Positions 9,296 to 64,000 of a DNA stretch of 64,000 nucleotides are shown one piece after another; position 1 is the stretch's first letter; every line of letters starts with the position of its first letter. The position numbers and the translations under genes were made by a program. Origin of the DNA: an uncultured Actinomycetes bacterium (GTDB lineage Bacteria; Actinomycetota; Actinomycetes; S36-B12; UBA10799); NCBI GenBank assembly GCA_964556255.1, contig CAZKVQ010000009.1, forward strand, positions 582 to 64,581. Reading direction: 5' to 3'. A model generated the notes under the pieces. It saw only the letters and a list, made by a program, of their open reading frames with translations. It was not told the origin of the DNA and ran no database searches.

Positions 9296-9530
9296 TCGAT
9301 CCTCCGATTCTGGGGAGTCCGTCGAACGGACCCGTCAGACAATCCTAACTGCGGGCTGGGGACCCGGTGGGGGTGCACCGGATAGATGTGGGACGCGACA
9401 CTGCATCGCCAGGTTCCGGCTCACCCAGCTGAGCCAATTACAGGCGTGTATTTAGACAAGGGTTACACAGCCCGGTCGTGACTTTGGGAGCATGGGGGTG
9501 CGCGTCGTGCGGCGCGAGAGGGGTGGCCAG

Positions 9531-10793
9531 ATGCGCGGCTGGTGGAGTCGGGGATGGCTCGTGCTCTTCGTACCGGTGCTCGCCGTGCTGGCGGCTGTCG
9601 CGCCGGCTTCCCCCGCGGCGGCCGCTCCGAGCGGATTCCTCATCGACGGCTTCGGCTGGGGACACGGGGTCGGGCTCTCGCAGTACGGGGCATACGGGCA
9701 GGCCAAAGAGGGCCGCAATGCGCTGCAGATCGTCCACCACTACTTTCCCGCTGCGCGACTTTCGCCGCTGCGCGACGACGCCGACCTCCGCGTAAACGTA
9801 GGTCGTAGTCTGACCAGCGCCCGCCTGCGCACGGTGCCGTTGGCCCCCGGTGGAGGAAGATGGGAGGTGGCGATCGGTAGCAGGCGAGTGGTCGTAGCGC
9901 AGGATGCGGAGATCGCCCTCGTCCGTTCCGGCTCCACTGTCGAGGTGAGGATCGGCGGGAGATCTGTGGGGTCTGCGTCGTCAGTCACGGTCACCTGGGC
10001 CGGCACCCGCAAGCCAGGAGCTGCAGGTCGGGTGCCCACCGCGCTGGAGATCGCCCCCTCGGTCGGCTCGTCGTTCCGCACCGATCGTCGGTACCGCTAC
10101 GGCTGGCTGGATGTCGGTGTCGCCGACGGCGGCCTGCAGCTCGTGAACACCGTGAGGGTGCATGACGAGTACCTCGCCGGCATAGCGGAAGTTTCGGCGT
10201 CTTGGCCGGCGGCCGCGCAGCAGGCGCAGGCGATCGCGGCCCGTTCTTATGCGCTGGCGAACACCGGGAAAGTGCGGGCTGCCTGCAGATGCAACGTCGA
10301 CGACGGCTACGGCGGCTACTACGGCCAAACAGTCTGGGGCGTCGCCCGTGCGCAGGGTCCCAAGGGCGGCAACTGGGCGGCCGCCGTGCGCGATACGGCG
10401 TTCGGGCCCCGGTACGGCTGGGCCTTGAGCTACGCCGGTCAGCCCATCTCTGCCTTCTACACGTCGTCCACCGGCGGACGTACCCAGAACAGTGAGGACG
10501 TGTGGGGAGGCGTACTGCCCTGGGCTCGCAGCGTGGATGACCATTGGAGTACCGATCCCAGGTACAACCCGAACGGGCGCTGGGCGACTCGACGGGTGAG
10601 CCAGGCGTCGCTGGCAGCGGTGTTCGGTCTTCCCGATGTCGCGTCAGTCCGGATCGTCAGATACGTTTCGGGTGCGGCGAAGGAGGTGTGGGCCACGTCC
10701 AGCGGGGGGCGCAGCGTCAAACTCAAGGGGTCCACTTTCCGCTCCCGACTGGGATTGCGCAGTACCTACGTCACGAGTGTGCGTCCCGGCTGA
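9531..10793 (+). CDS. SpoIID/LytB domain-containing protein (secreted peptidoglycan-remodelling factor)
   Basis: Signal peptide MRGWWSRGWLVLFVPVLAVLAAVAPASPAAAA, then GFGWGHGVGLSQYGAYGQA and the YTSSTGGRT motif typical of SpoIID/LytB. The start was moved to ATG 9531 inside the 9492 ORF. Confidence 0.85.
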   Translation: MRGWWSRGWLVLFVPVLAVLAAVAPASPAAAAPSGFLIDGFGWGHGVGLSQYGAYGQAKEGRNALQIVHHYFPAARLSPLRDDADLRVNVGRSLTSARLRTVPLAPGGGRWEVAIGSRRVVVAQDAEIALVRSGSTVEVRIGGRSVGSASSVTVTWAGTRKPGAAGRVPTALEIAPSVGSSFRTDRRYRYGWLDVGVADGGLQLVNTVRVHDEYLAGIAEVSASWPAAAQQAQAIAARSYALANTGKVRAACRCNVDDGYGGYYGQTVWGVARAQGPKGGNWAAAVRDTAFGPRYGWALSYAGQPISAFYTSSTGGRTQNSEDVWGGVLPWARSVDDHWSTDPRYNPNGRWATRRVSQASLAAVFGLPDVASVRIVRYVSGAAKEVWATSSGGRSVKLKGSTFRSRLGLRSTYVTSVRPG

Positions 10794-27166: not shown

Positions 27167-28048
27167 GTGGGCGCCCCGAACACATCCTCCCCGCCTGGAT
27201 CGAACCCCGGTCCGGGCGGGGACGCGCCTGTTCAGCCCGCGGTCCCTGCGCCGGTGGGGTTCCCGAACGACTACCCGGCGTTCCCGGTGGCGGGCTCCCT
27301 GCCGGCGACCAGCGCGCTTCTCTACCGGGGAGCGCCGGTCACCCTGCGGCAGGCCGTCGCGGAGGGTCGACCCGTCATCGCCGCGCGATGGGGAATCCCC
27401 GACATCCTGATCACCCTCGCGCTGTGGTTCTTCTTCCAGATCGTGGCTTCCTTGATCGCCCTGGGTCTCGGAGACTCACCGGTGGGCAAGTCGGTCGGGA
27501 TCTTGCTGCTCATCTCCATTCCCTGGTTCGGCCTCGCAGGATGGCCGATCTTGGTCGCCTTCTGGCGAGGCAACGGTCCCGTGATCGACTACGGCCTCAC
27601 CCGCAGGTGGTCAGACCTCTGGTGGGGGATCCTCTACGGGGTTGCCGCGTTGGTCGTCGCGGGGCTGGTCGCGGCCGGCACCGAGGCGATCTTCGGCAAG
27701 TTCGACTCTGCGGCGGGCGAGATCGCCGGGGACGTCAAACAGCTGTGGGCGCTCGTCCTGTTCGGGATACTCGTGGGCATCGGGGCGCCGATCGCCGAGG
27801 AACTCGCCTTCCGCGGCCTGCTCTTCGGCTCGCTGGCCAAACGGGGTCTCGCGCCGTGGCTGACGATCGGCATCACCGCACTGACCTTCTCGTTGATCCA
27901 CTTCGAGCCCATTCGGATCCCGCTGTTGCTCTCGACCGGCATCATCCTGGGCCTGGCGCGGTTTCACCGCGGCAGTACGACCACCTCGATCGTGGCGCAC
28001 ATGACGAACAACCTGCCAGCCGCGGTGGTTCTGATCCTCGGCAGTTGA
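27167..28048 (+). CDS. CPBP family intramembrane glutamic endopeptidase, second paralog
   Basis: Pro-rich N-terminus followed by a polytopic core with EELAFRGLLFG, LIHFE and IVAHMTNNL. Confidence 0.8.
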   Translation: MGAPNTSSPPGSNPGPGGDAPVQPAVPAPVGFPNDYPAFPVAGSLPATSALLYRGAPVTLRQAVAEGRPVIAARWGIPDILITLALWFFFQIVASLIALGLGDSPVGKSVGILLLISIPWFGLAGWPILVAFWRGNGPVIDYGLTRRWSDLWWGILYGVAALVVAGLVAAGTEAIFGKFDSAAGEIAGDVKQLWALVLFGILVGIGAPIAEELAFRGLLFGSLAKRGLAPWLTIGITALTFSLIHFEPIRIPLLLSTGIILGLARFHRGSTTTSIVAHMTNNLPAAVVLILGS

Positions 28049-28101
28049 ACCGCTCCTGACTCCGGCGGATCCGGAATCTGGACCCGGTTCCGGTGTGCAT
28101 G

Positions 28102-29226
28102 TCACTGCTGGGCTGCCGCCGCCAACACTGTCCCGAGGTTCTCGGTGCGGATGCGCCGATCCAGATACACCAGGGCGGTGACCCCTGCCACGAATGGCAG
28201 CGCGACCATCACGGTGACCAGGGCGGCCAAGGCCAGCGCGAACACCGAGAAGGTGCTGAGATCGCTGCCCGCACCACCGGCGAGACTGAACGGGATCGCT
28301 GCCACAGTGCCTACCGCCTGCGCCACGATGCTGCCGAGCAGCACCATGCCGAGCGTCCGCCAGAAGGCCCCCGACACCAGCCGGCGGGATCTCTTAAGCG
28401 CCATCACCACGCCGCAGTCCTCCAGCGCCAGCGCCGGGGTTGCCAGAATGAGGGTGAACGCCACCCAGACGGTCAGGGCAATACCCGCGAACACCCCGAG
28501 CAGCAGTAGCAGCGCCCCGGGCGCCGTGGCACCGGCCCAGATAAGCGCCGCGCCAGGGGCCATGGGAAGTAGCAGGGCAAGGATCGATGCGAGACTCACC
28601 AGTACGGTCACGCCCAGCAGTCTGAGGAACTGTGGGCGTACCAGGTCCCAGGCTTCAGCCAGCGAGGTGTGCTTGCCGATCACGGATCGACCCAGCACGT
28701 GGGTGAGCATCCCGGTGCCAAGGATCTGAAGCAGCCCCGCGATCACCGAGGTGGCAAGGGCGATGCCCAGCAGGGCGAGCACCGCCCGAAGGTAGATGCG
28801 GGGGTCGAGGTCGGGGGTCGGCTGCATCGGCAACTCCGCCACCTTGGACGCGGTCATCCCGAGGATCACAATCTGGCCGATGGCGGCGACGACGCCCATG
28901 ATCGCCGAGATCGCGATGACTGTGCGGGGGTCCCATCGCACGTAGTCGATAGCGCCGGTCATCACCTCCCCGACCTGCAACGGGCGCAGCGGGATGATTC
29001 CCGGTTTCGGTGCTGGCGGCGGTGGGGTCCAGCCGCCGCCAGCCGCCGGGCGACCTGCCGAGGCAGCACCGGAGGAGGCTGTGAACGGTGGCGGTTGATG
29101 GGCGGACCAACCCGGAAGTGGCTTCCCGCTTTCCTGCTCGGGGGAGACATGGTCGGGGCCCGGGTCGCCCCCATCGTTGGGTTCGGGGACACCGGCATCG
29201 TCGGGGGGTTGCGCGCTGCCGGACAT
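28102..29226 (-). CDS. integral membrane protein with Pro-rich cytoplasmic N-terminus (unknown function)
   Basis: 374-aa ORF. About 90 aa of low-complexity Pro/Gly/Ala N-terminus is followed by 6 or more hydrophobic helices. No catalytic motif recognised. Confidence 0.7.
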   Translation of the reverse strand: MSGSAQPPDDAGVPEPNDGGDPGPDHVSPEQESGKPLPGWSAHQPPPFTASSGAASAGRPAAGGGWTPPPPAPKPGIIPLRPLQVGEVMTGAIDYVRWDPRTVIAISAIMGVVAAIGQIVILGMTASKVAELPMQPTPDLDPRIYLRAVLALLGIALATSVIAGLLQILGTGMLTHVLGRSVIGKHTSLAEAWDLVRPQFLRLLGVTVLVSLASILALLLPMAPGAALIWAGATAPGALLLLLGVFAGIALTVWVAFTLILATPALALEDCGVVMALKRSRRLVSGAFWRTLGMVLLGSIVAQAVGTVAAIPFSLAGGAGSDLSTFSVFALALAALVTVMVALPFVAGVTALVYLDRRIRTENLGTVLAAAAQQ

Positions 29227-29346
29227 GACGCGATTGTCCCATGCTGCGCCCGAACGGCGGGGAGTTGGTGCCCATCAATGAGGACGCATCCACAGATCCC
29301 GCCGCCCGGTTGTCCGAGTCGGACGGACCGACCAGACTGCACCGCA

Positions 29347-30072
29347 ATGGTGGACCCCCTGTCCTGGCTCGACCTCGCGCTCCCGTCGTCGTGCGCCGGC
29401 TGCCAACAGCCGGCCACCCGTTTGTGTACCCGCTGCCGCAACAGCCTGGTCTCGGTGCGGGCGCGACTCGTACCGCCGCCACCTGGTCTGCCGCTGCTGG
29501 CCGTGGCAGGTGAGTACCGCGGGGTTCTCAGATCCGCGGTGCTGCGCCACAAGTCGACCCCCAGTGCCCCGCTGGCTGCGGCACTGGTCGAGGCCCTGCG
29601 GCGCTGCTGGTCGGCGCTGCGGTCAGTCCTCGTTGCCTTGCGACCGGACCTCGCGCTGGCTGGTGGCCGGGTGTCGGGCGGCGACACCCTCCGACCTGGC
29701 CCCGGCCCTCCCGTGCTCATGGTCCCCATCCCACCGAGCCGCAGGCTCTCCCACCGGCGGCCGGTAGCGGAACTGCTGCGCCAGTCAGGATGGTCCGCCG
29801 AAGGTGTCGCCCTTGCTGAAGCCCTCGCCCCGGTGGGTTTGCGTCGGCCGCAGAAGGAGTTGTCCGCGGCCGCCAGGCGGCGGAACATGACCGGCGCTCT
29901 GAGGTGTCGCCGGATACCCGCTGCCCTGGTCGGCTGGCCTGCGATCGTCGTGGACGATGTCGTCACCACTGGCGCTTCGATGCAGGCAGCAGCTGTGGAA
30001 CTTGGCCGCGGAGGTCTCGACGTCGTCGGCGCCGTGGCGCTGGGACATACCGCCGTCGGAGCGCAGGAGTGA
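29347..30072 (+). CDS. ComF family protein (phosphoribosyltransferase fold with N-terminal Cys4 zinc finger)
   Basis: CAGCQQPATRLCTRCRNSL followed by the PRTase loop IVVDDVVTTGASM. Start at ATG 29347 within the longer 28669 track ORF. It sits in the position upstream of hpf, as for Rv3242c. Confidence 0.8.
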   Translation: MVDPLSWLDLALPSSCAGCQQPATRLCTRCRNSLVSVRARLVPPPPGLPLLAVAGEYRGVLRSAVLRHKSTPSAPLAAALVEALRRCWSALRSVLVALRPDLALAGGRVSGGDTLRPGPGPPVLMVPIPPSRRLSHRRPVAELLRQSGWSAEGVALAEALAPVGLRRPQKELSAAARRRNMTGALRCRRIPAALVGWPAIVVDDVVTTGASMQAAAVELGRGGLDVVGAVALGHTAVGAQE

Positions 30073-32720: not shown

Positions 32721-35642
32721 GTGGGACTATTCGACAAGGTACTCAGGGCCGGTGAGGGCAAGACCCTCCGCAAGCTGGAGAAGATGGCCACGGTGGTCAA
32801 CGCCCTCGAGGAAGACTTCATCGACCTGACAGACGCTGAACTACGGGCCAAGACGGACGAGTTCAAGGAGCGGCTCGAGTCCGGTGAGGACACCCTCGAC
32901 ACTCTGCTTCCCGAGGCCTTCGCCGCTGTCAGAGAAGCCTCCAAACGCACGCTGGGACAGCGCCACTACGACGTCCAGATCATGGGTGGTGCCGCGCTGC
33001 ATCTGGGCAACATCGCCGAAATGAAGACCGGTGAAGGTAAGACCCTCGTCGCCACCCTGCCCAGCTACCTCAACGCCCTCAACGGGCAGGGCGTGCACGT
33101 CGTCACGGTGAACGACTACCTGGCCGAGCGGGACTCACAGTGGATGGGCAGGGTGCATCACTTCCTGGGTCTGGAAGTGTCCTGCATCCTGGCGCAGATG
33201 AGTCCGGCCGAACGTCGAGTCGCGTACGCAGCCGACATCACCTATGGCACCAACAACGAGTTCGGGTTCGACTACCTACGCGACAACATGGCGTGGTCGC
33301 TGGACGAGTTGGTCCAGCGCGGCCACAGTTTCGCCATCGTCGACGAGGTGGACTCGATTCTCATCGACGAGGCCCGGACCCCGCTGATCATTTCCGGGCC
33401 GGCAGATCATGAGCCGAAGTGGTACGCCGACTTCGCGCGCCTGGTCGATCGGCTGGAGCGTGACACGGACTACGAGGTCGATGAGAAGAAGCGAACGGTC
33501 GGAATCACCGAGGAGGGGGTGGAGTCCACCGAGGATTGGCTCGGCATGGACAACCTCTACGAGGCGGAGAACACCCCGCTGGTGGGCTTCCTCAATAACG
33601 CGATCAAGGCCAAGGAACTGTTCAAGCTCGATCGGGACTACGTCGTTCTCGATGGCGAGGTCGTCATCGTCGATGAGCACACGGGACGCATCCTTCCCGG
33701 TCGCCGCTACAACGAGGGCCTGCACCAGGCGCTGGAGGCCAAGGAGGGTGTCGAGATCCAGACGCTGGCCACCATCACGCTGCAGAACTACTTCCGGATG
33801 TACGACAAGCTCGCGGGCATGACCGGCACCGCCATGACCGAGGCGGCGGAGTTCAACCAGACCTACAACCTCGGTGTGGTACCGATCCCGAGCAACAAGA
33901 AGAACCAGCGCAAGGACGCCTCCGACCTGGTGTACCGCACCGAGGACGCGAAGTTCAACGCGGTCGTCGAGGACATCGTCGAGCGGAACGAGATCGGCCA
34001 GCCCGTGCTGGTGGGCACAGTCAGCGTGGAGAAGAGTGAGAAGCTGTCGAAGGCCCTGCGCAGGGCCGGGGTTTCCCACCAGGTCCTCAATGCGAAGTTC
34101 CACGAGCAGGAGGCCGCGATCGTGGCCGAGGCGGGCCGCAAGGGTGCCGTCACGGTCGCCACGAACATGGCAGGTCGAGGCACCGACATCATGCTGGGCG
34201 GCAACCCCGAGCACCGCGCCGCTGCGGAGTTGGCGGCCCAAGGCCTCAATCCCGCGGAGAATCCGGAAGAGTACGAGGCCCGTTGGCCGGACACCCTGAA
34301 GGCGGCAACCGAGTCGGTCCAGACCGAGCATGAAGAGGTCACCGACATCGGAGGACTCTACGTACTGGGCACCGAACGGCATGAGTCGAGACGTATCGAC
34401 AATCAGCTCCGAGGCCGTGCTGCCCGCCAGGGGGATCCGGGCGAGACCCGGTTCTACCTGTCATTGGAGGATGAACTCATGCGCCGCTTCAATGCGGCCA
34501 TGGTCGACTCGTTCCTAACCCGATTCAACGTGCCCGACGATGTGCCGATCGAGGCGAAGATGGTCACCCGGGCGATCGCCAGTGCGCAGGCGCAGGTGGA
34601 GAGCCAGAACCTCGAAATCCGCAAGAACGTGCTCAAGTACGACGAGGTGATGGACCGTCAGCGGAAGGTCATCTACTCGGAACGACGGGCCGTGCTCGAC
34701 GGGGAGGACTTATCGGATCAGGTCCGCAGGTTCATCGACAACGTGGTGGAGTTGCACGTCCGCGCAGCCACCGCGGAGGGTTACCCGGAGGAATGGGACC
34801 TCGACGAGTTGCTGGCGTCCCTCGGGGAGGTCTACCCGGTCGGCCTCACAGTGGACGACCTCGAGAGCAGGTCCGGAGGCGGCCGACATGGCATGAGCAC
34901 CGACTTCCTCATCGAGGAGCTGCAGGAAGATGCCCAGCTGGCATACGACCGCCGCGAGGAGGAGCTCGGCGACGAGGTCACCCGGGAGTTGGAGCGTCGG
35001 GTCATCATGAGTGTGCTGGACCGCCGCTGGCGTGAGCACCTCTACGAAATGGACTACCTCAAGGAGGGCATCGGGCTGCGCGCGATGGCGCAGAAGGACC
35101 CGCTCGTGGAATACCAGCGTGAGGGTTACGACCTGTTCCAGGCGATGATGGCCGCTATCGGTGAGGAGTCGGTGGGCTACCTCTACAGCGTCCAGCCCCA
35201 GGCGCCCGAGGCGCCGGCGGAGATCGAGGATGCCGAGCAATTCGGGATCTCCGGTGTCGCGTCAGCCGAGATCGCGGCAGCGCTTGCCGAGGCATCGGGT
35301 CAGACCCAAAGCGGCGCTCTCGACCTCGACGCCCTGTCGAAGGTCGACGCCGAAGAGGAAGTTGCGGCTGTGGAGGCCGAACTGGCCGCATCTCAGCAGG
35401 TACCGGCGGAGGAGGATATCGACATTCTCCTGCCGGAGGGTCTGGGGGCTCCGCGCCGGCCGGGCACCTTGCAATACTCCGCCCCGACCGCTGAGGGCGA
35501 CATTGAGGTGCAGTCGCAGACCGTGACGGACACTGACGACCCACTCTCCGACGATCCCTACCGCGGCACAGCGCGCAACGCTCAGTGCCCCTGCGGATCC
35601 GGGAAGAAGTACAAGCGCTGCCACGGCGCTGATCCGAAGTAG
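32721..35642 (+). CDS. secA: preprotein translocase ATPase SecA
   Basis: [18 protein letters not shown]..., Walker [38 protein letters not shown], and the C-terminal Zn motif [17 protein letters not shown] 32721 was chosen by alignment to the usual SecA N-terminus. ATG 32703 and 32712 are alternatives. Confidence 0.95.
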
Positions 35643-53825: not shown

Positions 53826-54302
53826 ATGCCCAGGGAACGAGGACGAAAGCTCATCGCGCAGAACCGCAAAGCGCGCCATGACTACGAGATCCTCGACACC
53901 TACGAGGCCGGAATCGTGTTGGTGGGGACGGAGGTCAAGTCCCTCCGGGCCGGCCGGGCCACGCTTGCCGACGGCTACGCGACGGTGGACGACGGGGAGG
54001 TGTGGCTCCGAGGGGTGCACATCCCCGAATACGACCCGGGAACCTGGACCAACCACGAGCCTCGTCGCACCCGCAAGTTGCTGCTGCACAAGGCCGAGAT
54101 CGCCAAGCTGATCGGCAAGACTCGGGAGGGCGGGCTAACACTCGTTCCGCTGTCGCTCTACTTCAAGGACGGCAAGGCGAAAGTCGAACTCGCGTTGGGC
54201 CGCGGCCGTCGCTCCTACGACAAGCGTCAGGCGATCGCGGAACGGGAGTCCAAACGCGAAGCCGACCGGGCGTTGGGCCGCGGCCGGAAAGGTATGGACT
54301 GA
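53826..54302 (+). CDS. smpB: SsrA-binding protein SmpB
   Basis: [32 protein letters not shown]...[12 protein letters not shown]...[30 protein letters not shown]. Confidence 0.93.
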
Positions 54303-54334
54303 CTTCGACTCCTCGGGCCGGGCATGATGACCCC

Positions 54335-55861
54335 ATGACATCTGTACGCGAGGCCGTCTTCGATCTGCTCCAACGCCATGGGATGACGACCGTATTCGGT
54401 AACCCGGGCTCAACTGAGATGCCCTTCCTGAACGAGATGCCTGACGGCTTCCGCTACATCCTGGGGTTGCAGGAGGGCGCAGTCGTGGCGATGGCTGACG
54501 GCTATGCCCAAGCGACCGCGGGGCCGACCCTGGTGAATCTGCATTCGGGTCCGGGCGTGGGAAACGCGATGGGCAGCATCATCAACGCTCGCGCCAACAG
54601 GTCGCCACTGGTGATCACTGCCGGTACGCAGGTGAGACCCATGCAGGCCATGGAGGCTTGGTTGACCAATGTTCGGGCAACCGAACTGCCCCAGCCAGCG
54701 GTGAAGTGGAGCGGGGTAGCCGCGCGGGCAGCCGACACTCCCGCCGTGCTCGCCCGGGCCATCCACGAGGCATCGTTGCCGCCCACGGGCCCGGTGTTCG
54801 TGTCGCAGCCGATGGACGACTGGGCGGCCGATGTGACGCCGGCCGAGAGCAAGTACCTGAACACTCGGAAAGTCGTCAGCGCCAGTGGCTTCGATCAGGC
54901 GACGGCCGCAGCGGTTGCGGCGCGGATCGATGACGCGTCAGCGCCATTGCTGGTGCTCGGTTCACCGCTCGACAGCGAAGCAGGCTGGCGTGATTCGGTG
55001 GCGCTGGCGGAGAAGGCGGGGATGGCGGTGATGTTGGCGCCGGTGGAGGGCCGGTGGAGTTTCCCCGGCTGGCACCCCAACTTCCGGGGCACGTTGTTGC
55101 CGGCGATCGCGGCGGCCGCGGCACAACTCGCAGCGCATGATCTGGTCGTGGTCGTCGGTGCCCCAGTCTTGAAGTACTACCCCTACATGCCCGGCGAGTT
55201 GCTGCCCGAGGGGACGGAGTTGGTGCAGATCACCGACGACCAGGGCGAAGCCTCTCGGGCACCGATGGGTGACGCCTACATCGGCGACCCCACGGCCGCG
55301 GTGGCCGGCCTGCTCGCTGCCGTCTCAGCACGTCCGTCACGAGTCCCGGGCCCCCCGCAGGTGCCCGCGGTCGCTCCAAGCTCGTCACCGCTGTCGCCTG
55401 CCGACGCCTACTCGACGATCGCCGCCGTGATGCCGGACGACGTGGCTGTCGTGTCGGAATCGCCGTCGAATCTCATGGTCATGCTGAACCATTGGCGGCC
55501 CTCGCATCCGCGCAGCTTCTTCTTCTCCGGCAGTGGTGGCCTCGGCTTCGGCACATCCGCCACGGTAGGTGTCCAGCTGGGCCTACCCAACCGGCCGGTC
55601 GTCGGCATTCTCGGAGACGGCGCATTTCAGTATTCGGTTCAGGGCTTGTACACGGCCGCGCTGTACAACATCCCGGCCACATTCCTAGTTCTGCGCAACA
55701 GTCAGTACGCCATCCTCAAGTGGTTCGGTGAGGTGGAGGGTGCCCCGGGTCGAACGGTTTCGGATTCGGCAGCCTTGGCTGATGCCCTGCCCGAGGCGCT
55801 CGGCGCCGAGGGCCCGCGGCTCATTCAGGTGGATATCGACGGGTCACGGGAGGTCATGTAG
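54335..55861 (+). CDS. thiamine-pyrophosphate-dependent decarboxylase (benzoylformate decarboxylase-like)
   Basis: From ATG 54335: VFGNPGSTEMPF, TPP-binding GDGAFQY...N motif region (GILGDGAFQYSVQGL...LVLRNSQY). The upstream part of the 54002 track ORF overlaps smpB in another frame. Confidence 0.85.
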   Translation: MTSVREAVFDLLQRHGMTTVFGNPGSTEMPFLNEMPDGFRYILGLQEGAVVAMADGYAQATAGPTLVNLHSGPGVGNAMGSIINARANRSPLVITAGTQVRPMQAMEAWLTNVRATELPQPAVKWSGVAARAADTPAVLARAIHEASLPPTGPVFVSQPMDDWAADVTPAESKYLNTRKVVSASGFDQATAAAVAARIDDASAPLLVLGSPLDSEAGWRDSVALAEKAGMAVMLAPVEGRWSFPGWHPNFRGTLLPAIAAAAAQLAAHDLVVVVGAPVLKYYPYMPGELLPEGTELVQITDDQGEASRAPMGDAYIGDPTAAVAGLLAAVSARPSRVPGPPQVPAVAPSSSPLSPADAYSTIAAVMPDDVAVVSESPSNLMVMLNHWRPSHPRSFFFSGSGGLGFGTSATVGVQLGLPNRPVVGILGDGAFQYSVQGLYTAALYNIPATFLVLRNSQYAILKWFGEVEGAPGRTVSDSAALADALPEALGAEGPRLIQVDIDGSREVM

Positions 55862-55893
55862 GCCGTCCCACGGGGTCGGCAGCCCGGGGGCGT

Positions 55894-56244
55894 GTGCGGA
55901 GCCTCGGCCCTGAAGGTAGATTCGGCGTCATGCGTTCGTTGGGCTCCGCAATCGCTGCGGCCTCGTTGATCGGCGGATTCGGCATCGCCCAAGTCACGGA
56001 CAACCGGACCGCCGGTGGCGTGGTACTTCTGGTGGGTGGGGCGTTTGCCGCCTGGCAGTGGTGGCGAGTTGCGGGACCTGTACCGGCAGTGGCCAACGCG
56101 GTGATCTTCGTCGGTGCTTTCGCGCTCTCGCATCCGCTGGCCAAGCAGATCGGCGCCTGGCCTTCGGTGTTCACTGTGACCGCGGTGACAGCCGTTGCGA
56201 CGTACGCGATTGCAAGTCCGAGCAGGCGCGCCATCGTAGCCTGA
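55894..56244 (+). CDS. small hydrophobic membrane protein (hypothetical)
   Basis: 116-aa ORF with 3-4 predicted TM helices. No recognisable motif. Coding status is inferred only from ORF length and hydrophobic periodicity. Confidence 0.5.
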   Translation: MRSLGPEGRFGVMRSLGSAIAAASLIGGFGIAQVTDNRTAGGVVLLVGGAFAAWQWWRVAGPVPAVANAVIFVGAFALSHPLAKQIGAWPSVFTVTAVTAVATYAIASPSRRAIVA

Positions 56245-56356
56245 CCGCGGTCGCCGGCGTTCAAACTTCAGCAGGGCCGGGCCTTCGGGGTGCGCGCATG
56301 TGCTGACGGGAATGAGCCGTCTGTGGTGCGGGTTACAATGGGCGTACAACTCAACA

Positions 56357-56733
56357 GGGGGTGACAGGTTTCGACACCGGTTGCCGTAAAGAGAGAAGCG
56401 AGCCGAGGACCCACGGTTATCTCGCAAACGATCCGTGGAAAACAACAAGTGCCGATACAAAGCGCACTGACTTCGCTCTCGCTGCCTAAGCAGCTGAGCA
56501 TTTAAGAAGTCCGTCAGACCGGGGATGTCTCCGACCCGGACCCTGGCGTCGACTAGGAGACTCGCCGAAGTCCCCCGCTCACGGGGGGACAAGGGACATC
56601 AATCAGTGAGGTAGGCCGCGTTCCCCGTTGTGCCACACGAATCGGGGAGGCCGAATCGCATCAACGTGGCTGCGCTCGGAGAAGTCTCGGAACAGTGCCG
56701 ATGGACGCGGGTTCGATTCCCGCCACCTCCACC
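56357..56733 (+). ncRNA. ssrA: tmRNA (transfer-messenger RNA, SsrA)
   Basis: The 5' GGGGGTG pairs with the 3' CACCTCC (including G3:U), followed by ACC. T-arm GGGTTCGATTCCC. The internal tag ORF GCC GAT ACA AAG CGC ACT GAC TTC GCT CTC GCT GCC TAA (56451-56489) encodes ADTKRTDFALAA, with the actinobacterial ...ALAA ending. A TACAAT box lies at 56334-56339 upstream. Confidence 0.9.
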
Positions 56734-58303
56734 CGACCGGACGGTATACGCACACCGGTCCGTTTGAGGAGCCAGCCCCCGCGGGGGCTGGCTCCTTTGT
56801 CGTGTCTGGGGTGGGGCGGGTAACTAACAGTGTTACGGCGACCTCGGGTGTCGGGATGCGCAGTATCGGCGTTGCGTCATGGCCGTCTATGTCAATACGT
56901 TCGATGAGAAGTTCCAGCAGCTGGGAGCGCAGTCTCGTGTTGCCGTTGCGCAGGGCGTCAGCGAATTTTGCTGCGAGCCCCTCAAAGTCCGTAGCGCGAG
57001 GACAGGCTGGTTCTTCTTGGAGTTCGTATTCAAGTTCGGTGATGCGAAGCTTGACGGCGGCCTCTTGGGCGAGCAGTTCGTCGTGGCGGGCTGTGAACAG
57101 CCGTGCCGGCAGGTCACCGCTTTCGTAGTCGGTGATGTAGCGCGCCATTTTCGCACTTAGTGATGCTGCCCGATGCCGCGCGGCTTTCAACTCGCTTGCA
57201 TGCTGGGCGCGTTCGGCGGCGCCGTGGTCGTGCTGGGTGGCGAACGCTTCGGCGAGCAAGTTGGTATCGGCCAGCGTGTTGAGGATGATGTCGATGATTT
57301 GCGTTTCGAGCGCGTCGGCGCGTACCCGGGTGCCGGGGCAGGACCGTTTGCGGGTCTTCAGTGACGATACGCACGAGTAGTAGCGGTAGCGCCCGGCTTT
57401 GGAGTGTGAGCTTGTGCCGGCGATGGCTCCTCCGCAGCTGCAGTAAAGGACCCCGGATAGTAGGTAGTCCGACGATGCACGGCGGGCGGCATCTGACCGG
57501 GTGCGTTTGGCGCGCAGGGCGGCCGCGGTCGCGAACATGGCCTCGTCGATGAACGCGCTGTGGGCCCCGGGCAGCCAGGCGCCTTTGTAGCGGATTTCAC
57601 CGATGTAGGTGCGGTTGCCGAGAATGTCGGCAAGTCTGGTGGAGGCCCAAAGTCCGCCGCGTGATGTTCGCAACCCGTCAGCGTTCAGTTCGTTAGCAAG
57701 TGCGACTAGTCCGACCTCGCCGGTGGTGTAGCGGGTGAAGATGCGTTCGACGATGGGAAAAGTATCAGCGTCGGTTTCCAGAATCCCAGTGACTTGGTTA
57801 CGCCTCAGCCCGTAGCACGGTACACCGCCGACTTGCAGCCCCCGGCTGGCCTTTGTGGCATTGCCGCGGTTGATGCGTTCGAGGATGCTGCGACGTTCGA
57901 ACTCCGCGAAGATGCTTAGCATCTGCATGAGCATCATTCCGCTGGCGCCTGTCGTGTCAAAAGACTCCGTCGCGGAACGAAACTGCACCCCCACTGCTTG
58001 AAGTCTGCGCACCGTGTCCATCACGTCGGACAGCGACCGTGACCAGCGGTCGAGGCGGTAGACGAGCACGAGGTCGAAGCGCCCAGCTTCCGCGTGCTTC
58101 ATGAGCCGCTGAAATTGGGCCCGGTTCGTGTTCTTGCCGGAGACGCGTTCGACGTAGTCGGCTGCGGCGACCATGCCCGGCTGGGATTCGATGAACCGTT
58201 GGAGAGACGCCAGCTGGGCGTCAAGGGAGTATGGCTGGTTCTCTTCGCCGGTGGAAGCCCGGCGGTAGGTGGCAACACGGACGACTGTGCTGTCGGTGCT
58301 CAT
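56603..58303 (-). CDS. large serine recombinase (integrase) of the ssrA-adjacent island
   Basis: N-terminal resolvase domain VATYRRASTGEENQPYSLDAQ (catalytic Ser) and LVLVYRLDRWSRS. Recombinase domain. Zn-ribbon CSCGG...YYSCVSS...RSCPG, followed by a coiled coil. The last ~65 codons are antisense to the ssrA terminator and the tmRNA 3' end, so the native C-terminus is probably near 56.8 kb. Confidence 0.9.
   Translation of the reverse strand: MSTDSTVVRVATYRRASTGEENQPYSLDAQLASLQRFIESQPGMVAAADYVERVSGKNTNRAQFQRLMKHAEAGRFDLVLVYRLDRWSRSLSDVMDTVRRLQAVGVQFRSATESFDTTGASGMMLMQMLSIFAEFERRSILERINRGNATKASRGLQVGGVPCYGLRRNQVTGILETDADTFPIVERIFTRYTTGEVGLVALANELNADGLRTSRGGLWASTRLADILGNRTYIGEIRYKGAWLPGAHSAFIDEAMFATAAALRAKRTRSDAARRASSDYLLSGVLYCSCGGAIAGTSSHSKAGRYRYYSCVSSLKTRKRSCPGTRVRADALETQIIDIILNTLADTNLLAEAFATQHDHGAAERAQHASELKAARHRAASLSAKMARYITDYESGDLPARLFTARHDELLAQEAAVKLRITELEYELQEEPACPRATDFEGLAAKFADALRNGNTRLRSQLLELLIERIDIDGHDATPILRIPTPEVAVTLLVTRPTPDTTKEPAPAGAGSSNGPVCVYRPVGWRWRESNPRPSALFRDFSERSHVDAIRPPRFVWHNGERGLPH
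56768..56800 (+). terminator. rho-independent terminator of ssrA
   Basis: Perfect 28-nt palindrome GGAGCCAGCCCCCG/CGGGGGCTGGCTCC (56768-56795), followed by TTTGT. Confidence 0.7.
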
Positions 58304-58969
58304 GTGAGGTGGTGCTCCTCGATGGTGGCGGACGGAGGGCTCGGATGGGTCCGTTGTCCGCTAATTTGCAACCTCCGCAAGCCCTGATGTGTTCCATTGA
58401 GTCGAGCAGCAGCGCGATGCTGCGTACTGCTTCCTGATAGGTTTCCTGGCCCATCGGCACTTTGGTCGCTGTATGGACGTGGATTTCGTTGGTTTGCCGG
58501 CGTCGCGCCGGAGGTCTTGCTTTGGATGGTCTCGTCGTGGATCCCATATCCGTCACAGTGCATGTGGCATCCGATTTTGTCAGTCGCCGATGTCGGTTTA
58601 CCTCGTCTCTACGCCCAGTGGCACATGCGCAAACCCGCGATCGGAGTCTCTTGCACATCGCATCAGCGCAATCCGGAGACCTTGGCCAACGTCGGGCGCA
58701 GGCTGCGGACCTGGATGTCGGGCCCCATCTGCCGAAGACAATTCGCCGGCGCCCCTGCGCCGCGACGGGTGTCGGGGGTTACTGGCAGGGTTACTACTTG
58801 ACGGTCGGTTTCGTGGGAGGACCGTTGCGACAGTGAAACCCCGGTCGAGTCTCAGCCGCGTTGTCGTGTCCCGACTAGGGTCGAACTTCGAGGTGGCTCG
58901 AGGGTCGGTGGTGCGGATTGTCGTTTGGTGGTCAAGACGGTGGAGCGAGTCCAGAGTGGGAGGGGTGAG

Positions 58970-61900
58970 ATGAAACAGAGTCAGCAATCAGGCGAGGCCA
59001 CGCTACGGCCGGGTGCGGTGGTGTCCGGGCTGGCCGGCCCTCAGACGGCGACGATCCTGTCGGTCATCAGGCTGACCGACGACTCGGCGACAGTCGTCTA
59101 CCGCAACGACGAGGGTGCGCTTGACGAGAAGATCGTGTTCGCAGAGCAGCTCGCCGCGATTCGGGAGGTGTCCGCTGGCGCGGCCTTCACCTTCGACGCC
59201 GATCCGGCCTCGTTTTGGCTTGCCGCGGAAGCTCGTCGGATGCGCCTGGCGTTCCTGTTCGATCCGCAGTCGGCGTTGGGCACCTCTGACGTCGACCCGC
59301 TTCCCCACCAGTTGAGGGCCGTCTACCAGGAGATGCTGCCCCGACAGCCGCTGCGCTTCGTCCTCGCAGACGACCCGGGTGCAGGCAAGACAATCATGGC
59401 TGGGCTGTTCATCAAGGAGCTGCTGTTGCGCGGTGACGCGTCCAACGTTCTCGTCATCGCACCGGGCTCGCTGGTCGACCAGTGGCAGGATGAGCTGTCG
59501 GCCAAGTTCGGACTGGACTTCCAGATCCTGACCAAAGACCTGGTCGCCGGGAGTGGGAACCCGTTTTCCCGCGGAGGGCTATGGCTCGCGCGCCTTGACG
59601 TTCTGGCGCGCAACTCTGAGAACATCCAGGACAAAGCCTCAGAGGTTGACTGGGACTTGATCGTCGCCGACGAGGCCCACAAACTGTCGGCATCTGTGTG
59701 GGGCGGGGAGGTGAAAAAGACCAAGCGCTACCAGATGGCCGAACGGCTCGGCTCTGCGCGCAATCTGCTGCTCATGACGGCGACGCCGCACTCGGGCAAA
59801 GAGGAGCAGTTCCAGTTGTTCATGGCGCTGCTGGACTCCGACCGTTTCGAAGGTGTGCCACGGGAGGGCACCCGCCGGGTGGACGTGTCCGACCTCATGC
59901 GCCGCATGATCAAAGAGGAGCTGCTGACCTTCGATGGCACCCATCTGTTCCCCGAGCGCCGCTCCTACACCGCGCGCTATCCGCTGTCTGGCCCGGAACG
60001 GGATCTGTATGTGGCGGTCTCGGACTATGTGCGCGACCAGATGAACCTTGTCGCCCAACTCGCCGAGGACGGCAAGCGCCGCGCATCGGTTGGTTTCGCG
60101 TTGACCACGCTGCAGCGCCGACTCGCCTCGAGTCCGCGTGCGATCCATCGCTCGCTGGAGCGCCGACTGCGCAAGTTGACCGACCAACTCGACGAGGTTC
60201 GCAGTGGCGGCGACATCACCGCGCTGTCCACCCCTGTGGTAATCGACGCTGACGACCTCGATGAACTGCCCGACGATGAGCTCGAGGCGCTGGAGGACGA
60301 AGCCGCGGCAGGAGCCTTCGCCGCCCGCACGGCCGAGCAGCTTGAAGCCGAGATCGCCGTGGTGGCTCGGCTGGTGGATCAGGCCGCCGCGGTGCGCCAC
60401 TCGCCGACTTACTCCAAATGGGATCGGCTGCGTGACACTCTCGACGACGCCCCGTTCATGCGCGACGGCGCTGGGCAGCGGCGCAAGGTGATCATTTTCA
60501 CCGAGCACAAGGACACCCTTGATGACCTGACCGAGCGACTGCGCGACTTCATCGGCCGCGACGACGCGGTCGTCACGATCCACGGTGGGACCCGCCGGGA
60601 GGACCGAAAGAAGGCCCAGGAGACGTTCCGCAGCGACGACGGGTGCTACTTCCTCGTCGCCACCGACGCCGCCGGGGAAGGTGTGAACCTGCAAAACGCC
60701 CACCTGGTCATCAACTACGACCTGCCGTGGAATCCCAACCGCATCGAGCAGCGCTTCGGCCGGGTGCACCGCATCGGCCAGCAGGAGGTGTGCCACATGT
60801 GGTCTCTGGTGGCCGCCGACACCCGCGAAGGGATGGTGTATGAGCGGCTGTTGGAGAAACTCGAACAGCAACGCCAAGCCCTGGGCGGGCGAGTATTCGA
60901 CGTCCTCGGTCAGGTATTCGACGGGACGTCCTTGCGTGACCTGATGATGGACGCCATCCGGTACGGCGACGACCCGGCCCGGCGCACCGAACTGCTCACC
61001 GTTATCGACGCCCACGTCGGCGACGGCATCGCGGAGGCCCTCTCCGAGGAGCAACTCGTGCCGACCATGATGGCCACCAGCGAAATCGACCAGGCTCGCC
61101 GAGAGATGGAACGGGCTGAGGCCGCGCGCCTGCAGCCCTATCACGTGGAGGCATTCTTCTCCGCCGCGTTCGCTGCAGCCGGCGGACACCTGCGTCCGCG
61201 TGAATCCCACCGTTACGAGATTCGTTCGGTTCCCTCCGTCATCAAAGACCAGGACCGCATCACGGGCTCCGGCATGCCTGTGGTCAACACGTACTCCCGA
61301 GTCGCGTTCGACCCGCGCAACCTGCGTATTGACGGCCACACCCAGGTCGCGGCACTGCTGCACCCCGGGCACCCGTTGATGGCCGCTCTCATGTCTGTCA
61401 CCACCGACCGTCACGGCGACGCGCTGCGCCACGGCGCGATCCTCGCCGACCGCTCAGACGCATCTCTAGACCCGTACGTCGTGTGCCTGCTCGAACACGA
61501 CGTCACCGACGCCCGTCGCGGCCGCGATGCTCAGCCCCACGTCGTGTCGCGACGTGCCCAATACGTGCGCCTGGATGTCGACGGCACCATCGCGCCTCTG
61601 GGTGGTACACCGCTGCCCAACCTCGAACCGCCCACCGACGCCGAACTGGTCCAGGCACGGATCATCGCCGGCCAGGACTGGTGTACCGCCGCCACGCTCG
61701 AGGACGCTGTGGTCAACCACGCCGCCGCAACCCTCGCCCGCGAACACTCCGAGGACATCACTGCCTCCACGAACGCCCGTATCGACAAGACCACCGCGCT
61801 CGTACGCGACCGGCTGACAAGGGAGATCAACTATTGGGACTCCCGAGCAGCCGAACTGCGTGAGGCCGAGCACGCCGGCAAGCAGACCCGGCTGCCCGCC

Positions 61901-62458
61901 TCCCAACTCCAGCAGCGCGCCGACGAACTGTCCCATCGCCTGGACCGCCGCCTGGCCGAGTTGGAATCAGAGAGAGCGCTTTCCGCGCGTCCGCCGCGCA
62001 TCACTGGTGCATGCCTGGTCGTGCCGCAGGGATGGTTCGAGGCCCTCACCGACCCAGAGGGTGCCGCCGCGCATGCCAAGGAAACCGCCCGCGTGGAGCG
62101 CCTCGCTGTCGAGGCGGTCCTCGCAGTTGAACGCGCCCACGGACATCGCCCGGTGGAGATGCCGCATAACAACCCGGGCTACGACATCGAATCCGACACG
62201 CCCGAGGGCCTCGACTTCATCGAGGTCAAGGGTCGCGTCGAAGGGGGCGACGAGTTTGTGCTCACCCGAACCGAGGCGTCGACCGCCCTGAATAAGGGCC
62301 GCCGCAGCGTCCTGGCACTGGTGCGCGTCGCCGCCGACGACACGACGACGGTGCGCTACCTGCGCCAGCCGATCACCCACCCGCTCGATCCGCGTGCACG
62401 GTCGGTCACCTTCGAATGGGATGCGATGTGGGACGACGGCCAGGAGATGACACCGTGA
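58970..62458 (+). CDS. SNF2-family helicase-related protein with C-terminal DUF3883 (PD-(D/E)xK-like) domain
   Basis: ATG 58970 follows GGGAGGGGTGAG. Motif I DDPGAGKT, motif II VADEAHKL (DEAH), motif III LLMTATPHSG, helicase-C LVATDAAGEGVNLQ and QRFGRVHRIGQ. The C-terminus GYDIESDTPEGLDFIEVKGRVEGGDEFVLTRTE is DUF3883/restriction-endonuclease-like. Confidence 0.9.
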   Translation: MKQSQQSGEATLRPGAVVSGLAGPQTATILSVIRLTDDSATVVYRNDEGALDEKIVFAEQLAAIREVSAGAAFTFDADPASFWLAAEARRMRLAFLFDPQSALGTSDVDPLPHQLRAVYQEMLPRQPLRFVLADDPGAGKTIMAGLFIKELLLRGDASNVLVIAPGSLVDQWQDELSAKFGLDFQILTKDLVAGSGNPFSRGGLWLARLDVLARNSENIQDKASEVDWDLIVADEAHKLSASVWGGEVKKTKRYQMAERLGSARNLLLMTATPHSGKEEQFQLFMALLDSDRFEGVPREGTRRVDVSDLMRRMIKEELLTFDGTHLFPERRSYTARYPLSGPERDLYVAVSDYVRDQMNLVAQLAEDGKRRASVGFALTTLQRRLASSPRAIHRSLERRLRKLTDQLDEVRSGGDITALSTPVVIDADDLDELPDDELEALEDEAAAGAFAARTAEQLEAEIAVVARLVDQAAAVRHSPTYSKWDRLRDTLDDAPFMRDGAGQRRKVIIFTEHKDTLDDLTERLRDFIGRDDAVVTIHGGTRREDRKKAQETFRSDDGCYFLVATDAAGEGVNLQNAHLVINYDLPWNPNRIEQRFGRVHRIGQQEVCHMWSLVAADTREGMVYERLLEKLEQQRQALGGRVFDVLGQVFDGTSLRDLMMDAIRYGDDPARRTELLTVIDAHVGDGIAEALSEEQLVPTMMATSEIDQARREMERAEAARLQPYHVEAFFSAAFAAAGGHLRPRESHRYEIRSVPSVIKDQDRITGSGMPVVNTYSRVAFDPRNLRIDGHTQVAALLHPGHPLMAALMSVTTDRHGDALRHGAILADRSDASLDPYVVCLLEHDVTDARRGRDAQPHVVSRRAQYVRLDVDGTIAPLGGTPLPNLEPPTDAELVQARIIAGQDWCTAATLEDAVVNHAAATLAREHSEDITASTNARIDKTTALVRDRLTREINYWDSRAAELREAEHAGKQTRLPASQLQQRADELSHRLDRRLAELESERALSARPPRITGACLVVPQGWFEALTDPEGAAAHAKETARVERLAVEAVLAVERAHGHRPVEMPHNNPGYDIESDTPEGLDFIEVKGRVEGGDEFVLTRTEASTALNKGRRSVLALVRVAADDTTTVRYLRQPITHPLDPRARSVTFEWDAMWDDGQEMTP

Positions 62459-64000
62459 CCCGCAAAATCATCGAGGTGGCGCTGCCTCTGGAACAGATCA
62501 ATGCCGCCGCGAAAGCGGACAAGGACCGAAAGACTGGCACCATCCGCAACCTGCACAAATGGTTCGCCCCCGCACCACTGCCAGCCTGGCGGGCGCTGCT
62601 GTTCGCTGCCCTCGTCGACGACCCGCAAGACGACAACCGCCGCGTCTACCTGCTCGACCTGATCAAGCGATTGGTGGCCAACGGAGCCGACCTGCCCGAC
62701 GCCGACACCCTCGCCGAGGCCCGGCAGGTGATAGTCGACCAGTTCCCGGATGGAGTACCCGCCGTCATGGACCCGTTTTGTGGAGGGGGTTCCACCCTGG
62801 TGGAGGCTCAACGACTGGGCCTGCCAACCTTCGGATCCGACTTGAACCCGGTGCCGGTGCTCATCACCCGCACCCTGACCGAACTGCTGCCGAAGGTGTA
62901 CGGTCAGCAGCCGCTTCATCCCGAGACCGAAGCCGACCGCGACCAAGCCAAGAAGGGAACCAAAGGCCAAATCCCACTCGACTCCAGAGACCGGCCTCTC
63001 ATCTACTCGGGCTTCGACGGGCTCATCCGCGACGTCACCTACTACGCCGAACAGGTCCGCGACCGGGCATGGGAACAGTTGAAGGACAACTACCCATCTG
63101 AGCCTGGCGAGACGCCGATCGCGTGGCTGTGGGCGCGTACCGTGACCTGCCCGAACCCGGCCTGCGGCATCGAGACCGTCCTGTCAACCTCGTGGTGGCT
63201 GTCGAAGAAGAAAGGCGACCTCGCCTGGATCTCTCCCCGCGTCGAGGACGGCCAAGTCGTGCTCGACGTGGTTAGTGGGCAGACGTCGGGCGAGGCGCCG
63301 GCGTCGCCGAAGGTCGGACGCGGCAGGTTCGCCTGCGTGGCCTGCGCGGCCACTTTGGGAGAGAACTACCTACGTGCCGAAGGCTCCGCGGGAAACATGC
63401 GCATTCGCATGACGGCGGTCGTCGCGGAGACCGAGAAGGGGCGACTTTACCGCGCCGCGACTGCCGCAGATGTGCCGACGGTCCCGACCTCGCCAGATGC
63501 GACCGGCGTTGGTGACGTCCCCATCGTGAAGTGGCGCTCGGTAAATGTCCCCGACTACGGCATCGACACCTGGGACAAGCTATACACCCCACGCCAACTG
63601 CTCACCCTCACTACGTTCGCGGACCTGGTCGCCGCGACCTACGAGCGCATTCTTGACGACGGCGGGTCCCGCGAGTGGGCGTCCGCTGTATCAACACTTC
63701 TTGGGTTGGCGGTGGGCCGCCGGGCGCGCTACGGATCCTCGCAATCGCAGTGGCGCCTCCGAAGTTCGGCTAATGCGAAAGCCGAGTCGGTCTATGCCCG
63801 CAATGACCTGCCCATGATGTGGGATTTTGCCGAGACGTTCTTTGATGGTGGGTCAGTCGGCGATTGGATGGACGCCTGCACGGGCGTCTTCAGATCGCTG
63901 GCATACGCTGTGCCAGGGAGCGGTTCGGCTGTACGTGGCGATGCGCGTTCCGTTGCCTTGCCTCTTGGGTCGCCGGGGTCTTTGGTAGCCACAGACCCGC
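62455..64000 (+). CDS. DUF1156 domain-containing Zn-ribbon DNA methyltransferase (COG1743-type), 5' 515 codons; continues past window end
   Basis: Hand-translated open frame from GTG 62455 (GTGA overlap with the helicase stop) to 64000, with no stop codon. It begins VTRKIIEVALPLEQINAAAKADKDRKTGTIRNLHKWFAPAPL. SAM motif I is VMDPFCGGGSTLVEAQRLG (62770-62793). The Zn ribbon is CPNPAC...CVAC. The window ends in ...LVATDP, the beginning of a DPPY-type motif IV. The ORF is absent from the track because it is open-ended. Confidence 0.85.
   Translation, partial: MTRKIIEVALPLEQINAAAKADKDRKTGTIRNLHKWFAPAPLPAWRALLFAALVDDPQDDNRRVYLLDLIKRLVANGADLPDADTLAEARQVIVDQFPDGVPAVMDPFCGGGSTLVEAQRLGLPTFGSDLNPVPVLITRTLTELLPKVYGQQPLHPETEADRDQAKKGTKGQIPLDSRDRPLIYSGFDGLIRDVTYYAEQVRDRAWEQLKDNYPSEPGETPIAWLWARTVTCPNPACGIETVLSTSWWLSKKKGDLAWISPRVEDGQVVLDVVSGQTSGEAPASPKVGRGRFACVACAATLGENYLRAEGSAGNMRIRMTAVVAETEKGRLYRAATAADVPTVPTSPDATGVGDVPIVKWRSVNVPDYGIDTWDKLYTPRQLLTLTTFADLVAATYERILDDGGSREWASAVSTLLGLAVGRRARYGSSQSQWRLRSSANAKAESVYARNDLPMMWDFAETFFDGGSVGDWMDACTGVFRSLAYAVPGSGSAVRGDARSVALPLGSPGSLVATDP

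Follow-up and report, generated by a model that had tools for sequence, protein, structure and literature searches.

A probable integrative island with its own large serine recombinase and Hma defense genes at the 3' end of a tmRNA gene in an uncultured Actinomycetes bacterium

The Locus

What lies beyond the transfer-messenger RNA (tmRNA) gene of an uncultured Actinomycetes bacterium? We analyzed a stretch of 64,000 nucleotides (the window; assembly GCA_964556255.1, contig CAZKVQ010000009.1), in which the tmRNA gene, ssrA, is followed by a convergent gene for a large serine recombinase, a 0.67-kb spacer, HmaA, and a partial HmaB, in that order (Table 1). An earlier annotation of this DNA, made from its letters alone (the original prediction), had placed an intact tmRNA gene at the edge of a genomic island; the gene is indeed intact, and as positioned by ARAGORN and Rfam, it encodes the tag peptide ADTKRTDFALAA. 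From about position 56730 on, the window probably contains the left portion of an integrative island that is 7.3 kb long or longer, carries an Hma system, and was inserted at the 3' end of ssrA by its own large serine recombinase.

The YRRAST motif and zinc ribbon that had been read from the recombinase sequence are borne out by domain searches. A Resolvase catalytic domain (PF00239, E = 3e-36) occupies amino acids (aa) 11-155 and matches the catalytic domain of the TP901-1 integrase (E = 5e-16); it is followed by a Recombinase domain (PF07508, aa 181-267) and a Zn_ribbon_recom domain (PF13408, aa 281-338). The matches to solved structures are the TP901-1, SPbeta, and A118 integrases, the last over aa 224-347, and aa 350-450 can be aligned with relatives. 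The conserved part of the protein covers approximately aa 1-490 (56834-58303). The remaining tail (56603-56833) runs through a hairpin and the left attachment site (attL), crosses the junction with host DNA, and ends at a TGA (56603-56605) that lies 131 nt inside ssrA, an overlap that the original prediction does not mention. The last 76 codons are without the GC bias at third positions that marks coding genes in the window, and the tail is junction-encoded. No tyrosine recombinase was found in 56734-64000.

Hma operons consist of HmaA (a helicase), HmaB (a methylase), and HmaC (an ATPase). The window shows HmaA complete and HmaB in part, and HmaC would fall beyond 64000. Judging from the profile matches, HmaA would be defense cargo, and the island a putative carrier of an Hma anti-phage system. 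A small open reading frame (ORF; 58300-58563) between recombinase and HmaA, which shares ATGA with the start of the recombinase gene, was weighed as a candidate directionality factor and ruled out by its codon-position GC.

Table 1. Features at and beyond the tmRNA gene (window positions)
Feature	Position	Strand	Evidence
tmRNA gene (ssrA)	56357-56733/4	+	ARAGORN; Rfam RF00023, 142 bits
Large serine recombinase ORF, 566 aa, YRRAST	56603-58303	-	Pfam PF00239, PF07508, PF13408; PDB matches
Junction core CTCCACC	56727-56733	+	tRNA-like positions 69-75; end of host homology, start of identity with contig L011 (see text)
Putative P' half-site, island-borne	56731-56760	+	CGCAC + inverted repeat GACCGG...CCGGTC; position table, fold
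Perfect 14-bp hairpin	56766-56797	+	Sequence; fold; present in L011; inside recombinase ORF
Divergent intergenic spacer	58304-58969		GC 0.61; no convincing small gene
HmaA, SNF2/DEAD helicase + C-terminal NOV_C (DUF3883)	58970-62458	+	PADLOC 1345 bits; Pfam
HmaB, DUF1156-type adenine methyltransferase, N-terminal 515 aa	62455-64000 (window end)	+	PADLOC, E = 6.5e-92

An Insertion in the Last Bases of ssrA

Where does host DNA end? The original prediction had called for a comparison with close relatives to find an empty site, and we ran it with host contigs retrieved through the SmpB protein. Exact look-up yielded contigs of the same species (99% identical; L002-L004) and of a sister lineage (84-89%; L001), and a second look-up, at more than 90% SmpB identity, added ten more loci. 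Similarity of the window to at least six of these related host contigs ends at 56732/3, in the last bases of ssrA. L004, which is 99.4% identical to the window, departs after CTCCACC, and L001 and L098-L106 depart one base earlier, after CTCCAC. L001 and L098-L106 share a native sequence 3' of ssrA—CCTCCA-C[A/G]-..GGGCGGTTAGCCGAAAAACCGC, then a hairpin, GGGTTAGCCGAAAAGATGCGTCTTTTCGGCTAACCC—and the 15-nt stub of L004 beyond ssrA (ATGGGTGTTTGGCCG) agrees with it. No trace of this native downstream sequence was found in the window. Because the host relatives keep a native sequence that is missing from the window, the window carries an insertion, and because host homology stops at the end of ssrA, the boundary is located there. 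The junction is placed to within 7 bp (56727-56733). It was previously put downstream of the intact gene and its terminator, approximately 70 nt away. The accompanying statement that no duplicated tmRNA segment is visible held up: the window contains no second copy of the tmRNA 3' end with up to three mismatches allowed.

With the boundary at the end of ssrA, the "perfect terminator hairpin" of the original prediction becomes island DNA. The 14-bp stem is real, and the predicted fold of 56734-56810 has an energy of -44.4 kcal/mol (z = -4.0). However, a simple intrinsic-terminator scan that looks for a U tract passes over the hairpin, whose T tract is too short for it. It also travels with the recombinase in a second contig, L011, and does not occur in the native relatives, which own a different hairpin. 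The island hairpin would take the place of the native ssrA terminator.

Contig L011 encodes P0001, the only near-identical protein in a set of 5.8 billion proteins, with a C-terminus that differs. The contig comes from another metagenome and has a different left context. It is 100% identical to window 58435-56727 over 1,709 bp and then departs, having only CTCCACC in common with ssrA. We considered whether L011 might be an excised circle with the element's own attachment site (attP). This was ruled out, because its other side shows no dyad symmetry to the P' arm and also matches, up to CTCCAC, the end of a type IIG restriction-modification island (L095/L096). The latter two contigs, from other samples and other contexts, align with the far side of L011 up to ...CTCCAC and then depart. 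L011 is best read as a tandem junction between this second island (island X) and the recombinase island, with island X itself apparently ending in the tmRNA 3' repeat (CTCCAC); the likely order in that sample is tmRNA, island X, recombinase island. The split type IIG restriction-modification module of island X (L011 1716-11288; L095, L096) comprises an Eco57I-type methylase together with two further proteins, one of 297 aa and a GIY-YIG/RAMA protein of 925 aa.

A further arrangement is found in L002, which belongs to the same species as the window and comes from the same sample as L011. Here (9320-9756), ssrA is followed by unrelated DNA with a lower GC content (0.60) and an ORF that starts 120 nt downstream. 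The gene itself carries a single A-to-C change, at window position 56725 in the 3' strand of the acceptor, with no compensating change on the 5' side, which suggests another element that supplied its own, imperfect ssrA 3' end. It is plausible, though unproven, that L002 and L011 hold the two ends of one island X; the A-to-C change lies 5' of the shared core. The arrangements in L002 and L011 mark ssrA as a multi-island hot spot in this lineage.

A Recombinase Clade at tRNA and tmRNA Genes

Is the position of the recombinase against an RNA gene peculiar to this window? Using a profile built from the recombinase and 13 homologues, we found 498 candidate stretches encoding a relative among GTDB species representatives, and we examined 80 loci, at 34-39% identity. 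Of the 80, 55 have an intact tRNA or tmRNA gene that converges on the recombinase ORF and is overlapped by it at the 3' end, and in nearly all convergent loci the recombinase stop codon lies inside the RNA gene. The targeted tRNAs are of ten types (Ala, Val, Arg, Glu, Lys, Leu, Ile, Met, Asp, and SeC), and five loci are linked to tmRNA (L027, L044, L061, L063, and L087), with a sixth, L013, found separately. Cultured organisms among the tmRNA-linked cases are Gandjariella thermophila (L061), Nocardia brevicatena NBRC 12119 (L063), and Lentzea californiensis DSM 43393 (L087). In most of the other loci, the recombinase adjoins a tRNA 3' fragment that extends from about the anticodon loop onward (L012, L015, L019, L020, L023, L024, L029, L031, L032, L035, L048, L056, L089, and L093 have the fragment only). 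Such fragments are the mark of later islands that entered the affected tRNA gene at a point farther upstream. The sole tRNA-Val gene detected in L019 and L020 is located approximately 6.6 kb away.

These relatives share a fixed register. When loci are aligned on tRNA numbering, 51 of 57 have the motif CGAAC (at most one mismatch) on the island side at positions 91-95, exactly 15-19 nt beyond the CCA, and the window has CGCAC (56749-56753) in this register. The 52 distinct arms chosen for carrying the motif have the consensus CCnAnCcnGaCnnTGyGCGAACCgC. When the 57 relatives were searched over 10 kb for extended direct repeats of the end of the RNA gene, nothing exceeded chance apart from 14 nt in L085. 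Together with the empty site in host relatives, this behavior of the clade upholds the prediction of an ssrA-associated island with a serine rather than a tyrosine enzyme.

The cargo of the relatives varies. The closest homologue, P0002 (39-40% identity), adjoins a tRNA-Ala-like 3' end and has AbiE defense cargo; an AbiEi/AbiEii pair is found in L097 (847-2333). Replic_Relax proteins are encoded beside the recombinase in L058 (8026-9690) and L014 (7095-8291), and L058 carries a TetR/GNAT/peptidase set as well. Given this variety, the clade mixes mobilizable and defense-carrying elements. Near-identical P' arms (AATTAGTCATTGCACGAACACCTTCC...) stand at three different targets—tmRNA, tRNA-Leu(tag), and tRNA-Ala(cgc) in L061, L073, and L075—which hints at closely related elements that switch target genes. 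Collections of phages and plasmids held distant relatives only, at no more than about 35% identity and none full-length. A contig index had no record that exactly matched the window's recombinase, its HmaA, or P0066. We found no description of the clade, with its roughly 500 members among GTDB species representatives, in the papers searched.

Geometry of the Attachment Sites

How might the enzyme recognize such different genes? Recognizable far ends of islands lie within 10 kb in four relatives: L058 (approximately 8.0 kb), L088 (approximately 4.5 kb), L047, and L085. In the right attachment site (attR) of all four, GGTTCG has its first base 26 nt ahead of position 73, and after it comes a 6-14 bp copy of the acceptor end. 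The P and P' arms are inverted repeats of each other; in L058, 21 of 22 positions match, with the dyad centered between positions 71 and 72. The T-loop of the RNA gene also reads GGTTCG (positions 52-57), 5 bp closer to the dyad center than the GGTTCG of attR. In serine integrases, as known from half-site structures of the attP of A118/LI, the motif bound by the zinc-ribbon domain lies 5 bp nearer the crossover in the host site (attB) than in attP. The geometry of the relatives would fit this offset exactly if the T-loop served as the motif of the B arm. For the window's element, attL alone is seen, and the offset geometry comes from the four relatives. In the literature searched, we found no description of the fixed-register motif or of T-loop mimicry.

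We propose that the recombinase uses the T-arm and the 3' strand of the acceptor of the tmRNA as the B half-site of attB. Strand exchange would most likely take place at the dinucleotide CC at acceptor positions 71/72 (56729-56730), as predicted from the attL and attR geometry of the relatives. Along with a copy of the final ssrA bases, the island would contribute a P' half-site of its own and a strong hairpin. By supplying the end of the gene and the hairpin, it would leave ssrA intact with a replacement terminator. With the attachment site inside the 3' end of the recombinase ORF, the integrated gene meets a stop codon only inside ssrA. On the far side, attR is predicted to consist of a P arm of approximately GGTGTGCGTATACCGTCCGGTC (the reverse complement of 56734-56760), then CTCCACC, then ATGGGTGTTTGGCCGAAA. 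If the island was moved by its own recombinase, the far end should hold the mirrored P arm, approximately GGTGTGCG...CCGGTC, adjoining CTCCACC and the native ATGGGTGTTTGGCCG. Scans of Joint Genome Institute (JGI) metagenomes for the P' arm and for the native B' junction gave no matches. The wider proposal is that the clade—mostly from Actinomycetota, Chloroflexota, and related phyla—uses the T-arm and acceptor end of any tRNA or tmRNA as an attB half-site, while its attP arms copy the T-loop GGTTCG 5 bp farther from the crossover; we give this generalization an even chance. What is inferred in this account is where exactly the strands cross over, that the zinc-ribbon domain reads the T-loop as its motif, and that the island can still move today.

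Alternative Explanations

Several observations weigh against an island moved by its own recombinase. The 7.3 kb that are visible form the left side of the island; its right end is not in the window and probably not on the source contig either, which is 65,292 bp long and extends at most about 1.3 kb outside the window. Thus, attR, the island's size, and any integrase at the far end fall outside the data. No excised circle or attP of the window's element was found, L011 not being an attP. No directionality factor was identified in the spacer, where the third-position GC of all ORFs is at most 0.63 vs. 0.73-0.83 in real genes. No independent contig crosses the junction of tmRNA and recombinase, and the native B' side resembles the family motif only weakly and out of register (CGAAA). 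Finally, the compositional change noted in the original prediction holds for the recombinase and spacer only (approximately 56-59 kb; tetranucleotide z = 4.5-5.4, GC z of about -3), whereas the Hma genes are host-like (z = 0-1).

With the right end unseen, the serine recombinase might be a passenger of the island. Other elements use ssrA in this lineage, as the different DNA and changed acceptor base of L002 indicate; L098 has a weak Phage_integrase gene downstream, and island X ends in CTCCAC. Against this, the recombinase adjoins the end of ssrA in exactly the register that 51 of 57 relatives keep across a wide range of tRNA and tmRNA genes, a clade-wide pattern for which chance adjacency cannot account. 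In addition, small islands (4.5-10 kb) in four relatives have mirrored P arms at their far ends, and the two of these relatives whose ORFs were scanned, L058 and L088, contain no tyrosine-recombinase domain. We consider a passenger recombinase improbable. The host-like composition of the Hma genes would also suit an ancestral variable region that the relatives lost by deletion, with no insertion in the window. However, lineages of 84-99% identity have kept the native downstream sequence and terminator, which start exactly where ssrA ends, the composition of the recombinase region deviates, and the recombinase end recurs with 100% identity in another genomic context (L011), all of which makes such a history very improbable.

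Could the join between tmRNA and recombinase be an assembly chimera? The window comes from a metagenome-assembled contig of an uncultured Actinomycetota lineage, no second assembly spans the join, and the same recombinase end is joined to other DNA in sample ERZ27248701. Yet the two sides overlap by 7 bp only, which is too short to mislead a k-mer assembler, and the motif stands at positions 91-95 from the tmRNA end, as is typical of the family. Moreover, the base after CTCCAC in L011 is the same C as in the window, as expected if island X entered a preexisting junction of tmRNA and recombinase island. We assign an assembly artifact only a very slight probability. The recombinase could also be a fixed, domesticated gene (an invertase or resolvase), or the island a decayed, immobile remnant; the junction-encoded ORF tail and the lack of an excised form, attP, or directionality factor among our findings would agree with either. 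Nevertheless, the ORF is intact and retains its catalytic motif, another sample contains a copy with 100% identity, and closely related host contigs have an empty site, so that the probability of domestication or decay is low. Insertion of the island by its own recombinase thus remains the explanation that we favor.

Variation Upstream of ssrA

Upstream (5') of ssrA, the window encodes prfB, ftsE, ftsX, an M23 peptidase, smpB, a thiamine-pyrophosphate enzyme, and a small membrane protein. The genes for the thiamine-pyrophosphate enzyme and the 116-aa membrane protein (54300-56250) are missing from L098-L107, whose SmpB is more than 90% identical; in lineages without them, ssrA comes no more than approximately 430 nt after smpB. 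Since both genes are missing in lineages this close, the "conserved core block" of the original prediction is itself variable. Compared with the 99%-identical L002, L003, and L004, the window also lacks 63 bp (an in-frame indel of 21 codons) at 55745-55747, near the 3' end of the thiamine-pyrophosphate enzyme gene. Two further 2-kb segments outside the island, 28001-30000 and 33001-35000, are mild composition outliers (tetranucleotide z = 2.7-2.8).

Relation to Known Systems and Significance

How unusual is a serine recombinase at the end of ssrA? Integration at tRNA and tmRNA genes is commonly attributed to tyrosine integrases alone, with few scattered exceptions, and according to the Islander paper, no serine recombinase is known to target these genes (PMC4383910). 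The original prediction correctly named a large serine recombinase in place of the usual tyrosine integrase, but this is not unprecedented (PMC3146451, PMC3218068): serine-recombinase islands at tRNA or tmRNA gene ends are rare and have clear precedents.

The nearest is found in Dehalococcoides, where a serine recombinase, DsiB (ACZ62382), mobilizes ssrA islands; in every case its gene overlaps attL and has no stop codon until the frame has entered ssrA or the adjoining island (McMurdie et al. 2011, PMC3146451). The window resembles these islands in architecture: a large serine recombinase stands beside attL at the 3' end of a single-copy tmRNA gene, its ORF overlaps attL and stops inside ssrA, and accessory cargo and tandem arrays are found at ssrA. 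Unlike in the DsiB islands, the junction falls at the acceptor/CCA end (56727-56733), with approximately 7 bp shared (6-14 bp in the relatives). The small serine recombinase DsiA and the six-gene integration module are absent beside the window's recombinase, their place being taken by the noncoding 0.67-kb spacer and then HmaA, and the host is an actinobacterium with Hma defense cargo.

In mycobacteria, eight elements that occupy a tRNA-Leu gene and use serine recombinases have been described, and such cases were called rare (Ghinet et al. 2011, PMC3218068). Like these actinomycete integrative and conjugative elements, the window holds an actinobacterial integrative element with a serine recombinase at the 3' end of an RNA gene. 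The target, however, is tmRNA, the visible 7.3 kb contain no replication or transfer genes, and no Mycobacterium locus was among the 80 retrieved relatives. With the tyrosine-integrase islands cataloged by Islander and TIGER (PMC4383910), the locus shares insertion at a tRNA or tmRNA 3' end, restoration of the gene by the element, and a multi-island hot spot; it differs in having an unrelated enzyme family and, judging from the relatives, which share only 6-14 bp at the crossover, probably no long displaced gene fragment. Like the A118/LI, TP901-1, and SPbeta integrases of phages, the enzyme combines catalytic, recombinase, and zinc-ribbon domains, and its inferred attP arms would be inverted about a central dinucleotide with the outer motif 5 bp farther out in attP. 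It is set apart from them by identities of at most about 30%, by an attachment site within the 3' end of its own ORF, and by an attB that would be the end of an RNA gene with the universal T-loop as its outer motif.

Taken together, the locus and its roughly 80 relatives suggest that the exception to the tyrosine rule is a sizable, coherent recombinase clade with a simple, readable site logic. Serine integrases generally need no host factors, nor would the enzymes of this clade as tools. If the T-loop is indeed the recognized half-site, they would be candidate integration tools whose target sites already exist in essentially all genomes. If the proposed logic is true, one enzyme family could move between tmRNA and the tRNA genes of at least ten amino-acid types. 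The locus itself documents ssrA as a hot spot where defense islands of different types stack in tandem.

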